64,000 nt of DNA from Pseudomonadota bacterium (GCA_038043465.1 JBBTBX010000011.1:42204-106203), one strand, 5' to 3'. Positions 53,599-58,600 are shown, counted from the first letter of the stretch. The notes: a model not told the origin generated them from the letters alone. Numbers and translations are program-made.

Positions 53599-53620
53599 TG
53601 TCGGGGAGTAGCGCAGTCTG
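53599..53620 (+). repeat. Orphan 5' fragment of tRNA-Pro (first 19 nt plus 3 upstream nt)
   Basis: TGTCGGGGAGTAGCGCAGTCTG is identical to 53686-53707, and the sequence then diverges (CCACC vs GTAGC). Confidence 0.9.
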
Positions 53621-53688
53621 CCACCTGAACGTGAGTGAAGGATAAATTATAAAACGCTACCAGACGTTTTCTGGTGGTTGTTACGTGT

Positions 53689-53765
53689 CGGGGAGTAGCG
53701 CAGTCTGGTAGCGCATCTGGTTTGGGACCAGAGGGTCGTAGGTTCGAATCCTATCTCCCCGACCA
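53689..53765 (+). tRNA. tRNA-Pro (anticodon UGG)
   Basis: 77-nt manual cloverleaf: acceptor CGGGGAG/CTCCCCG, D-arm GCGC-AGTCTGGTA-GCGC, anticodon arm TCTGG-TTTGGGA-CCAGA, T-arm GTAGG-TTCGAAT-CCTAT, then discriminator A and CCA. Confidence 0.9.
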
Positions 53766-55229
53766 CTCTTTATAAGAGTGTTTACCTACCATTAGTTGGA
53801 ACGGATTACGCAAGGAATACTCTAGGTTTCCGCCCTTCAAAGCGAGGTTCGAAAAAACGAATCCAATCAACTGGCGTTTTTCCTCAATTTTCGAACTTTC
53901 AAAAATTTCATAAGCTGTTGATGCTATAGAAAACAAGCCTTCCACTGTGATTTTAAAGCTATCATCACCGTTTTCATGGTTCTTTGACATGATGTTAATT
54001 TCAAGCTGCCGTTCTTTAAGTGACTGCGCTTTTATGTCGTATTCATTCTTAGTAATACTCTTATCAAGGCGCATTTCTAATAAGACATTAAGTTTATCCC
54101 TTATTTCTACATATTCCTTTTGCAGGCTTTTAACTGCTTCCATGTGAAAGTCTTTTTCGGCTTCATGTCCTGATTTTAGATGCTCGGTCAGTGCTGCTAT
54201 TAAATTGGCTGGCAAGTGGAATGACTTAAAAACTTCCTTAATCTGTTCTAAAATCTGGTTTTCAGGAATAAATAACCGCTTTTCTGGATTTTCGGGGTCA
54301 CGGCAAATCAGATAAACAAACTTGCCTTTTTTAAGGTCACAAGTAACGCGCCTGCCAGATACCGCACATTTCAACAATCCACGAAACACAAATGGCTTTT
54401 CAGTAGTTCTAACTTGTTGGGTTCTATTATTACCTAAGCGAACTTCCTGACACTTATCAAATAACTCTTTGGTTATTAATTGTTCATATTTATGCTCGTA
54501 TAGATTTCCTTTAACCTTCATTACACCATAATAAAATGGGTTTTGTAGCATCAAGTGAATCTGGCTGGATGTTATTGGTGAGTTTGTTTTTCTGTTAGTA
54601 AGACCCCACTGTTTAACTTTTCTGGCTAAATCGCCTGAAATTGAATTTGTGCCATTGGCATATTCCATAAATAACTTACGAACTAAAAACGCTCTTTCTG
54701 GGTCAAGTATGATAGAGGCTTTACCGCTATTATTGCGAACATTGAGATAACCAAGCGGTGCTGCACTTGTCCATTCGCCATTACGAACCATGTATTCCAT
54801 GCTACGGCGCACATTCTCGGAAAGGTTAAGTACATAAGACTTTGCACCCATAACCGAAAAATCCCAACGCAGAATATCAGAAGAAGTTGCATTCTGGTTG
54901 ATAATCATATTTTCACGGTAAAAATGCAGTTCAACCAATCCCTTTTGCCGTAACTCATCAATCATTACCGATTCTTTGAAACTACGCTGGAAGCGGTCTA
55001 CGGCATCGGCAACTATAGCAATGGTTTCTTTCTGGACTTTGGCAAAATCCAACATAGCGTTAAATTCAGTTCTTTTGCCCCTTGTGGATGATTCTATAAT
55101 TTCAAACACTTTGATGACTTCAAGCCCTTTACGCTCACAGTAATCAATTAAACGCTGTTTCTGTGCGGAAATGGAATGTCCATCTTCCTGCTCTTTGGTT
55201 GATACACGCGCTAATATCACGGCTTTCAT
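53751..55229 (-). CDS. Large serine recombinase (resolvase/invertase N-domain + recombinase domain + zinc-ribbon)
   Basis: 492 aa with N-terminus AVILARVSTKEQEDGHSISAQ (catalytic Ser region), the recombinase-domain pattern PLGY...LKCAVSGRRVTC and a coiled-coil C-terminus. The last 15 nt overlap tRNA-Pro. Confidence 0.85.
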   Translation of the reverse strand: MKAVILARVSTKEQEDGHSISAQKQRLIDYCERKGLEVIKVFEIIESSTRGKRTEFNAMLDFAKVQKETIAIVADAVDRFQRSFKESVMIDELRQKGLVELHFYRENMIINQNATSSDILRWDFSVMGAKSYVLNLSENVRRSMEYMVRNGEWTSAAPLGYLNVRNNSGKASIILDPERAFLVRKLFMEYANGTNSISGDLARKVKQWGLTNRKTNSPITSSQIHLMLQNPFYYGVMKVKGNLYEHKYEQLITKELFDKCQEVRLGNNRTQQVRTTEKPFVFRGLLKCAVSGRRVTCDLKKGKFVYLICRDPENPEKRLFIPENQILEQIKEVFKSFHLPANLIAALTEHLKSGHEAEKDFHMEAVKSLQKEYVEIRDKLNVLLEMRLDKSITKNEYDIKAQSLKERQLEINIMSKNHENGDDSFKITVEGLFSIASTAYEIFESSKIEEKRQLIGFVFSNLALKGGNLEYSLRNPFQLMVGKHSYKEWSGR

Positions 55230-56780: not shown

Positions 56781-57905
56781 TTACGTAACAAGTACATTTT
56801 TATCTATATTCACTGCCTTCAATAAATATCCATCTTTTGTTATTTCGACCTCAAATGTTCCAAAAAATGGAATATATGTAAGCTCTTTACTACCTTTATA
56901 TTCTGGAACAGAAACTTCGCTAGCAAATTTACCATTTGCCGTAATCAACTGTTTATTATTATCTTTTTTAATATTAAAGTTCCAAATAGATAGGGGTTCC
57001 ATATTAATTTTAGCTGACAATTTTTTTAATTTATCCAAAACGTGGGCATGTGATGGATTACTAATAATTTGGTCTTCAATAAATATAGTTATAACTTCCC
57101 TCAGGAGATTTTTTAATCCTGCTACAGGCTGTTCAATAAGCCTATCCCAGTTTTCAACACTGTCTTCATAATTTCCAGCCCAGAAATTTTCTATTTTATC
57201 AAGCAACTCTGTCTTAGCACGCTCATAATCAGACTTGAGGTCATCAGATAAAGAGCGGTTGTGCATAATACAATTACGAGTATTTTCAATTGGAGTTAGA
57301 ATTGCTTTAATAGAAAGCAAAAAATCCTTATGTGTTTCATTTTGAACGCCTCTATCCAAAATAATGTTTCTGAATTGTTCAAAAGTTTCTGTTTCTGTCA
57401 GTAAATTAGTAACATCTTGTTCGCTTAATTTCTTATTATCAAGCAGGTTGGTATAATGTGAAAAAAGCAGATAGAAGAATTCATTGCTATAATTATTACT
57501 ATGTTCATTAGCTCGCTTGTCAATGTATTTAGCCAGGGTCTTATCCTGGTATAGTGGCGTTATGTTTGTATATTGCAGCAAATTATGAGGGTTTTCTGGA
57601 AATCTATTCAGAAATATATAAGTTAGAACCTCACGCAAACTCATTTCTATAGTGAAGATTTCCTGATATATAGTTTCATGTTGTTTATATAAAATAGGGT
57701 CATAAAATTTTACAACAGCTTCAATTTGCTCTACCGCCTGCAATGCTTTCAATATGTCTGGAATTACAATTTTATTTTCACCAAAGTTTTCAGCAATTAG
57801 GCTTACACGAACAAGTATTTGTTTATTTGGCAACCAGTCACAACTTTCTAAATCTACCATATCGAGTAATTGTTCATTAGAAAGCTCTTCTATTGAACTA
57901 TACAC
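56781..57905 (-). CDS. Hypothetical protein with HEPN-like Rx4H motif (Swt1/Abi-like), candidate abortive-infection effector
   Basis: 374 aa with a GTG start. Helical region aa ~85-240 carries MSLREVLTYIF and TRNCIMHNR (R210-x4-H215, DNA 57261-57278), followed by a ~130-aa beta-rich C-terminal domain. No confident family match by eye. Confidence 0.45.
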   Translation of the reverse strand: MYSSIEELSNEQLLDMVDLESCDWLPNKQILVRVSLIAENFGENKIVIPDILKALQAVEQIEAVVKFYDPILYKQHETIYQEIFTIEMSLREVLTYIFLNRFPENPHNLLQYTNITPLYQDKTLAKYIDKRANEHSNNYSNEFFYLLFSHYTNLLDNKKLSEQDVTNLLTETETFEQFRNIILDRGVQNETHKDFLLSIKAILTPIENTRNCIMHNRSLSDDLKSDYERAKTELLDKIENFWAGNYEDSVENWDRLIEQPVAGLKNLLREVITIFIEDQIISNPSHAHVLDKLKKLSAKINMEPLSIWNFNIKKDNNKQLITANGKFASEVSVPEYKGSKELTYIPFFGTFEVEITKDGYLLKAVNIDKNVLVT

Positions 57906-58494
57906 CTGGCTGATGGTATCGTGAATTAGCCATTGCGAATTGTTCTTTTTTACTACTAAAATCTACTCCTGTAGATATAGGAAAACCACCCCTTTTACGC
58001 CATGTTCCAGACATATTGTCACGACAAGAAAAAGGCAAAGTGCTTTCAAAAACACTTTTATGATTTAGGAAAGCCCAGAAAGACTTGGCATAATTGCCTT
58101 TTAATGAATCAAAATTTTCTAAAAAATCTATGTTGCAATATCGGCTTTCATCCAAAAGAAGTTTTACTCCTGTATCATAAGAAAGGGCGAAAATATCCTG
58201 AAAGTCAGTATCTATATTTGCCCTTGCCTTATCTGGTAATTGCTGGATAGCATCAAACAAAGGTGCAATATTTGTTGGTCTTATTTCATTAAAATCAATG
58301 TCGCTTAATAATCCATCACGCTTAAAATACTCTGCCAACATATCGTTGGGTACTGCTCGTAAGAAGCCCTTGAGTGCATAGTGCCGCATAATACTACTTT
58401 CAATAAATACATCTTTCCAACCTCTAATGAGAACTAACGGCACTGCCTGCGCCAAGTACAATATATAGTATTTTTGCGGACTATTCAATACCAC
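57898..58494 (-). CDS. Hypothetical protein, upstream partner overlapping the HEPN-like ORF by 8 nt
   Basis: 198 aa from GTG 58494 (163 aa from ATG 58389). No recognisable domain. It could instead be the N-terminal part of a frameshifted single ~570-aa gene. Confidence 0.4.
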   Translation of the reverse strand: MVLNSPQKYYILYLAQAVPLVLIRGWKDVFIESSIMRHYALKGFLRAVPNDMLAEYFKRDGLLSDIDFNEIRPTNIAPLFDAIQQLPDKARANIDTDFQDIFALSYDTGVKLLLDESRYCNIDFLENFDSLKGNYAKSFWAFLNHKSVFESTLPFSCRDNMSGTWRKRGGFPISTGVDFSSKKEQFAMANSRYHQPGV

Positions 58495-58582
58495 ATCAGG
58501 TAATTTCTTATAGCAATCAATGACTATGTAAAGTTGTACACATATAAAACTCTCAACATTGATAAATGCAGCTATTTTTAGC

Positions 58583-58600
58583 GGTCGTGGGTTCGAATCC
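58583..58600 (+). repeat. tRNA-Pro T-arm-like 18-mer (candidate att remnant)
   Basis: GGTCGTGGGTTCGAATCC versus GGTCGTAGGTTCGAATCC at 53734-53751 (17/18). The downstream sequence cannot complete a T-stem or acceptor stem. A second shorter TGGGTTCGAA lies at 58686-58695. Confidence 0.6.

Follow-up and report, generated by a model that had tools for sequence, protein, structure and literature searches.

The 64,000-nucleotide stretch of DNA analysed here, hereafter called the window, belongs to a Pseudomonadota bacterium (GCA_038043465.1, JBBTBX010000011.1:42204-106203) and carries, at the CCA end of its tRNA-Pro gene, a small island with the gene of a large serine recombinase (LSR), whose 3' end is read from the antisense strand of the tRNA. 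ARAGORN called a single tRNA in the 64-kb window, tRNA-Pro(UGG) at 53689-53765 on the plus strand, complete and with its CCA encoded. On the minus strand the recombinase, in its integrated (truncated) form of 492 amino acids (aa), extends over 53751-55229 and shares 15 nucleotides (nt) with the tRNA: its stop codon TAG stands at 53751-53753, and its final codons, W-S-G-R, are the antisense of the acceptor 3' strand and the CCA. An earlier note on this DNA had described both genes correctly, and junction and family comparison uphold its view that their overlap is the signature of an integration event. Its further suggestion, that the element supplied a rebuilt 3' end to the tRNA, has to be turned round: CGACCA is identical on both partners, so the tRNA was left untouched, and it is the antisense tRNA that supplies the 3' end of the recombinase gene.

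The island spans 53766-58717 (4,952 bp) and is located exactly at the CCA end of the intact tRNA-Pro gene. When the two junctions were compared, the sole identity between them was CGACCA, which at the left attachment site (attL) comprises the last two acceptor-stem bases, the discriminator and the CCA (53760-53765) and at the right attachment site (attR) occupies 58712-58717; attL reads ...CTCCCCGACCA|CTCTTTATAAG and attR ...ACTACTTTCGACCA|TATTCTTCAAGG. The right end of the island is 58717, and the chromosomal flank starts at 58718 (TATTCTTCAAGG...). Judging from the two junction sequences, the crossover must lie within the CGACCA core, and the T arm, the acceptor 3' strand and the CCA of tRNA-Pro are the tRNA-side (B') arm of the attachment site. 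The 6 nt common to attL and attR agree with the short att core of LSRs, which is exchanged at a central dinucleotide. This placement accounts for two points that had puzzled the earlier note: the part of the tRNA after GAATCC is not duplicated at the right end because a junction at 58712-58717 requires only the 6-nt core, and the long repeats that serine recombinases do not leave are not left here either.

The empty tRNA-Pro/phoR junction that the earlier note had proposed to look for was found in another assembly (GCA_021733405.1). Its contig L010, 99.56% identical over phoR, starts with CTCCCCGACCATATTCTACAAGG, and the window counterparts of this start are ACTTTCGACCATATTCTTCAAGG from 58707 and ATCTCCCCGACCA at the tRNA end. 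The tRNA end CTCCCCGACCA is fused there straight to the right flank, |TATTCT, which is the predicted empty site; since the start of L010 is the tRNA 3' end joined directly to the right flank of the window, the contig represents the unoccupied site. Occupied and empty sites coexist among 99.6%-identical strains. According to exact-protein look-ups the window is part of a 287-kb contig of a groundwater metagenome from Hainich, and its locus recurs in several assemblies. A shift in the GC and tetranucleotide profile, likewise anticipated, was also detected: the GC content of the island is 0.364 against 0.42-0.44 in the flanks, below that of all 198 other segments of equal size, and its tetranucleotide distance is the largest among 99 segments. 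The island composition is clearly foreign. The junctions, the empty site and the shifted composition support the earlier proposal that tRNA-Pro(UGG) harbours an integrative island, with a large serine recombinase as the mobilising enzyme.

The integrase gene, its tail and the attachment-site arms

The catalytic domain of the 492-aa protein was recognised by Pfam Resolvase PF00239 (9e-15, 55.4 bits, cut-off 23.3) and the recombinase domain by Pfam Recombinase PF07508 (1.5e-11, 44.9 bits, cut-off 21.1), and R8, S10, D78, R79 and R82 are invariant among 63 sequences. The AlphaFold2 (AF2) model, with a mean predicted local distance difference test score (pLDDT) of 81.5, shows a catalytic domain with a long helix E (116-149), followed by an alpha/beta recombinase domain (160-265) and a C-terminal half with beta strands at 296-322, helices at 341-388 and 394-445 and a hairpin at 459-473; it ends with two terminal helices (486-499 and 501-517). 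The best Foldseek matches were full-length serine integrase-DNA complexes including Bxb1, PhiC31 and 4KIS, the LSR-DNA crystal structure of 2013, with E values from 2e-19 to 3e-11. A sequence search of the PDB returned similarity limited to the catalytic domain, and the fold search was needed for the full architecture. By its domains, its model and its fold matches the protein can be assigned to the LSRs.

Residues 1-489 of the integrated form are native, S490 comes from the shared core, and G491, R492 and the stop come from the antisense tRNA. At the far end of the island, on the minus strand at 58625-58717, a short reading frame translates as W-SKVVDTLRTQHYAEIIKLSSYMPKFSKAA-stop and has no start codon in the integrated state; we refer to this displaced integrase 3' end as the tail exon. 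Once the island ends are joined (53766-55229 to 58717 and downward), it continues the frame of residues 1-489, and an uninterrupted 518-aa open reading frame (ORF) without frameshift results. The tail of this ORF aligns with long-form homologues of 516-524 aa, in which W489 is nearly invariant and a DTxRT motif is present. A hidden Markov model (HMM) of the tail, built with the window sequence excluded, had its best match in the six-frame translation of the window at 58631-58708 (26.2 bits, E 1e-6), the next-best match reaching 8.7 bits. As the alignment indicates, the native tail is 29 residues long and appears to be replaced on insertion by three residues read from antisense tRNA; in the AF2 model, integration takes away almost all of the two terminal helices. 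The tail exon also seems to form the attP-type (P') arm. A shorter repeat pointed out in the earlier note, TGGGTTCGAA, is indeed present at 58686-58695; it is neither a degenerate repeat nor a boundary, and instead consists of the codons L-R-T-Q of the displaced tail and is part of the attP-type arm.

The geometry of the arms was examined by counting positions from the T of TGG and comparing one arm of each site. Among the tRNA arms, the 53 with an initial TGG all have CGAAY at nt 20-24, while CGAAC is found at nt 25-29 in each of the 19 tail arms, where it corresponds to the Arg-Thr codons of DTxRT, the Arg being always CGA; GAT stands at nt 16-18 in most arms, tRNA and tail alike. The distal, zinc-ribbon-domain (ZD) motif therefore lies 5 bp farther out in the attP-type arm, as expected of LSR half-sites, one arm per site being considered. 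For the Listeria integrase, Rutherford et al. (PMC3783163) placed the ZD motif at half-site positions 16-24 in attP and 11-19 in attB, that is, 5 bp inward. By analogy with this model the central dinucleotide would fall at nt 5-6 of the 6-nt core, inside the identity block. Since this Arg is encoded by CGA exclusively, selection seems to act on the DNA itself as well as on the peptide, and recognition appears to use the universal T-loop.

Family-wide pattern and relatives

In a genome scan with one genome per species 80 loci were returned, the hosts being Alphaproteobacteria (including Rickettsiales and Micavibrio), candidate-phyla-radiation bacteria, Myxococcota and Bacteroidota; among the candidates scored there were 2,370 homologues at E <= 1e-20. 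The family is also present in viral contigs, where both the tRNA-fused and the tailed form occur. Of the 80 loci, 56 have an antisense tRNA overlapping the recombinase end (Asn 17, Gln 16, Ser 10, Arg 4, Pro 3, His 2, and Trp, Ala, Glu and Phe 1 each), and in 51 of these 56 the CCA is read as an in-frame TGG. The top 120 homologues comprise 95 tRNA-fused, 11 tailed and 14 other or truncated proteins. The tRNA-fused ones end at about 493 aa with W-L-G-D, W-S-G-R or similar, some of them continuing into ...DSNLRP..., which is translated antisense tRNA, and the tailed ones have 516-524 aa with a conserved W-x-x-x-(L/V)-D-T-x-R-T-.... Many deposited 'integrase' proteins of 499-531 aa (P0005, P0012, P0016, P0028, P0096, P0120 and others) run on into antisense tRNA, ending for instance in ...WLGDLDSNQD or ...WSGRQDSNLRPSG, a systematic artefact in the annotation of the family.

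In 12 loci out of the 80, a full tail exon with TGG as its first codon was located upstream of the LSR start, at a distance of 3.2-9.4 kb, which defines elements of 4.7-10.8 kb, and one more was added by the separately fetched contig L101. Over the 13 mapped elements the identity downstream of TGG amounts to 6 nt, L031 with 7 being the exception. The core sequence follows the tRNA: it is TGGTCG with Pro, TGGCTC with Asn, TGGCAG with Trp and TGGTTG with Gln.

Furthermore, circular relatives were encountered. The Logan contigs L091 and L092, from different samples, measure 7,792 nt each with 30-nt terminal overlaps, and after rotation they are the same 7,762-bp circle (0 mismatches) carrying the complete gene for 524 aa, tail included; in L093, a circle of 11,788 bp, a 524-aa gene stands beside a HigB/HTH (helix-turn-helix) pair. 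The circles carry the full gene, and therefore the long form belongs to the circular state and the short one to the integrated state. The gene content of these circles further includes a SpoVG-like gene, a replication protein similar to phrog_702 and restriction-modification genes of type IIG/III, and instead of being simple excision products they may represent integrative plasmids or satellites.

Other relatives depart from this arrangement. In L011 (3400-3560) and in L098/L099 (L098 2120-2300) the distal half of the tail exon is kept and the far-end core with the proximal arm is missing; the L011 and L098 copies are probably immobilised. Bacteroidota relatives generally keep a long-form gene in the chromosome, away from any tRNA. 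Two tail exons (630 and 2993) lie upstream of one integrase in L030, as tandem or remnant elements, and Emticicia L049 has tail-like sequences at 11486 and 13883 with no tRNA nearby, the second of them about 2.4 kb downstream of the first, at the spacing expected of a putative second tandem integrase gene.

Proposed mechanism and rival explanations

We consider it highly probable that the island is a 4,952-bp integrative element with its attP inside its own LSR gene, inserted at the CCA end of tRNA-Pro. What was observed in support of this is the anatomy of the locus, the junctions, the empty site, the circular long-form relatives, the covariation of the core and the shift of the motif. In the proposed course of events the circle would express the 518-aa integrase, and the LSR would insert the element at the extreme 3' end of tRNA-Pro(UGG). 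The attP would be contained within the LSR gene: the P arm would be formed by the codons just before W489, the core by TGG-TCG (W489-S490), which is the antisense of CGACCA, and the P' arm by the next ~8-9 codons (K-V-V-D-T-L-R-T-Q), while attB would consist of the tRNA T arm, the acceptor 3' strand, the CCA and ~20 nt downstream. The predicted attP, ~58690-58717 joined to 53766-53795, reads ...GTGTATCAACTACTTTCGACCA|CTCTTTATAAGAGTGTTTACC, and the predicted attB, 53735-53765 joined to 58718-58745, reads ...GGTTCGAATCCTATCTCCCCGACCA|TATTCTTCAAGGTTCATACC. Strand exchange in the 6-nt core would leave the tRNA unchanged and cut the LSR gene, giving it the new end W-S-G-R-stop (492 aa), and the 29-residue, two-helix tail would be stranded at the far end (58625-58717) without promoter or start codon. 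Excision would restore the 518-aa gene on the circle, with the predicted junction ...TTTCGACCACTCTTT.... The insertion was presumably catalysed by the LSR of the window itself, with the crossover dinucleotide probably within the core. By analogy with Mx8 IntP/IntX, the loss of the tail would be likelier to change the activity or the directionality of the enzyme than to have no effect.

Several observations weigh against this reading. The chromosomal-flank arm and the P arm have, by eye, weak symmetry with the tRNA and tail arms, because of which the full att-site definitions are provisional and not established. The Zn_ribbon_recom PF13408 match on the recombinase scores 17.8 bits, under the cut-off of 25.3, and in the zinc-ribbon region C288 and C309 alone are invariant among the 63 sequences; the zinc ligands are not all conserved, and zinc binding is therefore putative. 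In L010, 11 nt of the tRNA are visible and no more. The contig L094 holds a long-form gene with an intact attP-like sequence (10001-11569); it is non-circular, high in GC and 34.5 kb long, the neighbours of the gene look chromosomal and include no tRNA, and the case stands outside a simple dichotomy of circular and integrated copies. Considering the decayed L011 and L098/L099, the window copy could also be immobile. No circular form or attP junction of the window element was found, and its mobility is predicted from sequence. A scan of JGI metagenomes with a degenerate attB/attP/attL/attR pattern was uninformative: the single contig returned is unrelated, has a 3' fragment resembling that of tRNA-Pro and lacks an integrase.

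A different boundary results from a reading built on the features of the earlier note, according to which integration would have taken place in the T arm, two 18-nt repeats would be the att core, the element would have rebuilt the tRNA 3' end and the island would end at ~58600. The repeat is real, since 58583-58600 agrees with the 18-mer of 53734-53751 in 17 of 18 positions and we estimate a chance expectation of ~1e-5 in 5 kb, and the layout is like that of the tyrosine-integrase tRNA islands of Islander. As a right boundary it had nevertheless to be rejected: it lies within the island, 112 nt from its end, and 12 other mapped elements of the family lack it. The 18-mer was also discarded as a family feature, being confined to the Pro-targeting sub-lineage. 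It is part of an internal T-arm-like fragment with a hairpin (58583-58613, plus strand), the 6-bp stem of which is formed by GAATCC (58595-58600) and GGATTC (58608-58613) around the loop GTACACA, 11 nt past the tail-exon stop; fragment and hairpin are kept in the closest relatives that target tRNA-Pro, L011 and L101, with a conserved stem and a variable loop. Integration in the T arm would predict the empty site ...GGTTCGAATCC|GTACACAGG, from which the L010 junction differs, since it joins the tRNA CCA end to 58718 onward and not to 58601 onward. Additionally, 58601-58717 encodes the conserved tail of the integrase itself, and the sequence to the right of the 18-mer is not tRNA-like, so that the implied original tRNA would be non-functional; all this makes a T-arm crossover very improbable. 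We attach practically no credence to pure coincidence, that is, to an accidental overlap and an accidental tail-like fragment in a gene block that is an ordinary conserved part of the genome. Apart from the absence of direct excision data nothing speaks for it, and it is opposed by the recurrence of the overlap across phyla, at 56 of 80 loci, 51 of which have the TGG in frame, by the covariation of the core with the tRNA, by the existence of an empty site and by the outlying composition.

A one-way, 'suicidal' scheme deserves more attention, in which the 492-aa enzyme would be inactive, the island locked, exit possible only with a full-length copy in trans, and the tail a decaying relic. SSV-type archaeal integrases act so (PMC8371274), L011 and L098/L099 have lost the proximal tail and the far-end core, and no recombination directionality factor (RDF) was recognised among the six island genes with Pfam, PADLOC and phrog profiles. 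On the other hand, just 29 of 518 residues are lost, and none of the catalytic, recombinase, zinc-ribbon-like or coiled-coil parts is affected. Most of the 80 loci have an intact truncated ORF, and an intact, in-frame tail exon is present in the window, in L101 and in 12 of those loci. When the window is compared with L101, the tail identity is 22/30 by our own count, near the 76% identity of the whole protein, which is what selection on a used coding sequence would give. The coexistence of occupied and empty sites in 99.6%-identical strains also speaks against a locked island. We regard the one-way scheme as possible and on balance unlikely. As for the element with an intragenic attP that we prefer, its integration-dependent tail swap might even constitute a built-in directionality switch, a speculation which we hold to be rather doubtful. 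The 518-aa enzyme, made from the circle only, would be competent for integration, and the 492-aa enzyme, made only from the integrated copy, would have an altered coiled-coil control and would be either locked or able to excise attL x attR without a separate RDF; the same ~30 nt would encode the DTxRT peptide and form a T-loop-mimicking DNA arm bound by the enzyme.

Cargo, surroundings and known systems

The island contains six co-directional minus-strand ORFs with small overlaps and gaps, as the earlier note had reported. Upstream of the integrase, a DUF4357 protein (55226-56149; Pfam DUF4357 1.8e-20, phrog_12629 1e-64) matches PADLOC PDC-S14 at 1.7e-101, and the profile PDLC04925 covers residues 7-302 of its 307, practically the full length; it is a candidate single-gene anti-phage system, the PDC-S14 family being itself only a candidate defence. 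It is followed by an HTH_3 (HigA-like) antitoxin or regulator (56127-56447; Pfam HTH_3 PF01381 2.6e-10) and a HigB-like RelE-family toxin (56470-56751; Pfam HigB-like_toxin PF05015 9e-18), which by their adjacency and domains form a putative type II toxin-antitoxin pair of the HigB/HigA kind; a HigB-HTH pair stands upstream of the integrase also in the relatives L093, L098 and L101. The 374-aa protein (56781-57905) has a weak PADLOC PDC-M34B match (1.4e-05), no Pfam family at E <= 0.01 and, at E <= 1, two matches both under their cut-offs, and the 198-aa protein (57898-58494) has no Pfam or PADLOC match. All of these are encoded on the minus strand. In close relatives the gene order is HigB, HTH, sometimes one extra gene, and the integrase, with a SpoVG-like gene, a ~380-390-aa protein and restriction-modification systems further upstream; the L091 member of the ~380-390-aa proteins matches phrog_702, 'replication protein'. 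A replication module in the window was considered and rejected, the 198- and 374-aa proteins showing no similarity to SpoVG-like or phrog_702-like proteins. A promoter and terminator scan gave no signal over the shuffled expectation.

The island is flanked by core genes on both sides, in agreement with the earlier note: to its left stand dapA (DHDPS) and the lipid genes for a CDP-alcohol phosphatidyltransferase, a CDP-diglyceride synthase and an acyltransferase, and to its right the gene of a PhoR-like histidine kinase. An intergenic repeat of 66-68 nt, 95.6% identical with 2 gaps, occurs downstream of dapA (51115-51180) and downstream of the acyltransferase gene (53409-53476). Two more toxin-antitoxin pairs, BrnT/BrnA and a HigB-like/HTH_3 pair beside pst genes, are found in the neighbourhood (window ~44932-45484, and 63393-64000 and beyond; gene calls on L001 and L006).

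The tRNA-Pro gene has further marks around it. A perfect 22-nt copy of its positions -3 to +19 stands at 53599-53620, 87 nt upstream of the gene with a 65-nt spacer; L011, from a different metagenome-assembled genome with a 79%-identical integrase at the same tRNA, has a 41-nt 5' copy ~150 nt ahead of tRNA-Pro, and L013 has no 5' tRNA copy. Such copies may be scars of a different element type entering the 5' half of tRNA-Pro. In L101 (11462-12904; 76%-identical integrase) the tRNA-Pro is reduced to its 3' 45 nt beside the integrase, and a tyrosine-integrase island (Arm-DNA-bind_3 / Phage_integrase, HTH_17) starts immediately past the remnant; therefore tRNA-Pro is used by two unrelated integrase types at two sublocations. 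A crossover in the duplicated 5' segment (53599-53620 / 53686-53707), which would place the tRNA inside the element, was ruled out, as the right end lacks tRNA positions 20-70 and the family core sits at the CCA. In sample ERZ1292628 contigs end at window positions 53749 and 53695 with a 55-nt overlap inside the tRNA; a mixed population was rejected as the cause of these breaks, since the branch is not at the CGACCA junction and is better explained by k-mers common to tRNA-Pro genes of different species.

Insertion of large DNA into genomes relies mainly on large serine integrases, enzymes believed to stay clear of tRNA genes. The present family inserts at the invariant CCA end of at least 10 kinds of tRNA genes and leaves the tRNAs undamaged. 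It offers natural rules for att sites, with the T-loop as distal motif, a 5-bp shift between attP and attB, and a 6-nt core co-evolving with the target. Control of activity by the tail, should it exist, would amount to a new and highly compact means of setting the direction of recombination, and if the switch proposal is true, naturally retargetable serine integrases for the CCA end of almost any tRNA gene would be at hand. There are also consequences for annotation: finders based on tRNA fragments miss such islands, the integrases are systematically mis-called, and 492/493-aa 'complete' proteins, like the ...DSNLRP... read-throughs, are antisense-tRNA hybrids. A full-text search of the literature returned no account of a serine integrase with attP in its own ORF or of this integrase family, which is not proof of absence; the family is apparently undescribed. 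What is new here is the combination, in an LSR integrative element, of an intragenic attP with the CCA end of a tRNA as target. In Islander (2015) and in Mageeney et al. (2020) the CCA end of tRNA genes was not known as a target of serine integrases; the latter (PMC7192596) assigned 14 of 297 serine-integrase elements to t(m)RNA genes, as previously unreported cases in need of proof.

With the LSRs of phages and of integrative and conjugative elements (Listeria A118/LI, Bxb1, PhiC31, SPbeta SprA) the window integrase shares the resolvase and recombinase domains, a zinc-ribbon-like beta region and a long coiled coil, as well as the short shared core and the distal block 5 bp farther out in the attP-type arm (PMC3783163). 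Unlike in these systems, the attP of the window element lies within its own ORF, the C-terminal 29 residues are replaced on integration, the target is a tRNA CCA end, and no RDF was recognised. Small serine recombinases of the phiRSM group integrate at the tRNA-Ser 3' end, and gene splitting is not known among them; they are resolvase-sized, without the C-terminal half made of recombinase, zinc-ribbon and coiled-coil parts. What is common is site-specific integration by a serine-family enzyme, as cited in PMC7192596. Islander-type tRNA islands are similarly small islands beside a tRNA, with a tRNA-proximal integrase and a cargo of defence and toxin-antitoxin genes. They differ in that the far end of the window island has no displaced tRNA fragment, 6 nt are duplicated, the enzyme is a serine one and the tRNA is not rebuilt; since the T-arm piece is an internal and not an end fragment and no tyrosine integrase is present, the island does not belong to this class.

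The closest functional parallels are tyrosine integrases. The attB sites of the myxophage Mx8 overlap tRNA-Asp 3' ends. Its IntP/IntX likewise has attP in the integrase coding sequence, and integration creates a new 3' end and an altered C-terminus, which the enzyme survives (PMC6070905; the intragenic attP after Tojo et al. 1996, as reported in a citing paper). It is, in contrast, a tyrosine enzyme of a single phage, whereas the window family is serine-type and uses at least 10 tRNA types. Islander (2015) states that Mx8 and SSV integrases extend across attP. In SSV1-type integrases the site is inside the integrase gene, which is partitioned on integration into a tRNA and is whole only on the circle (PMC8371274). 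These enzymes are archaeal and of the tyrosine type, and their split parts the N-terminal from the catalytic portion and is inactivating, while the window integrase loses a short C-terminal tail only: it has the site in its own coding sequence without the tyrosine catalytic fold, and so works like a self-splitting integrase without being a member of that class. The 2021 review (PMC8371274) considers self-disrupting recombinases to be exclusive to archaea, a statement that bacterial serine recombinases with their own gene remodelled by integration would qualify.

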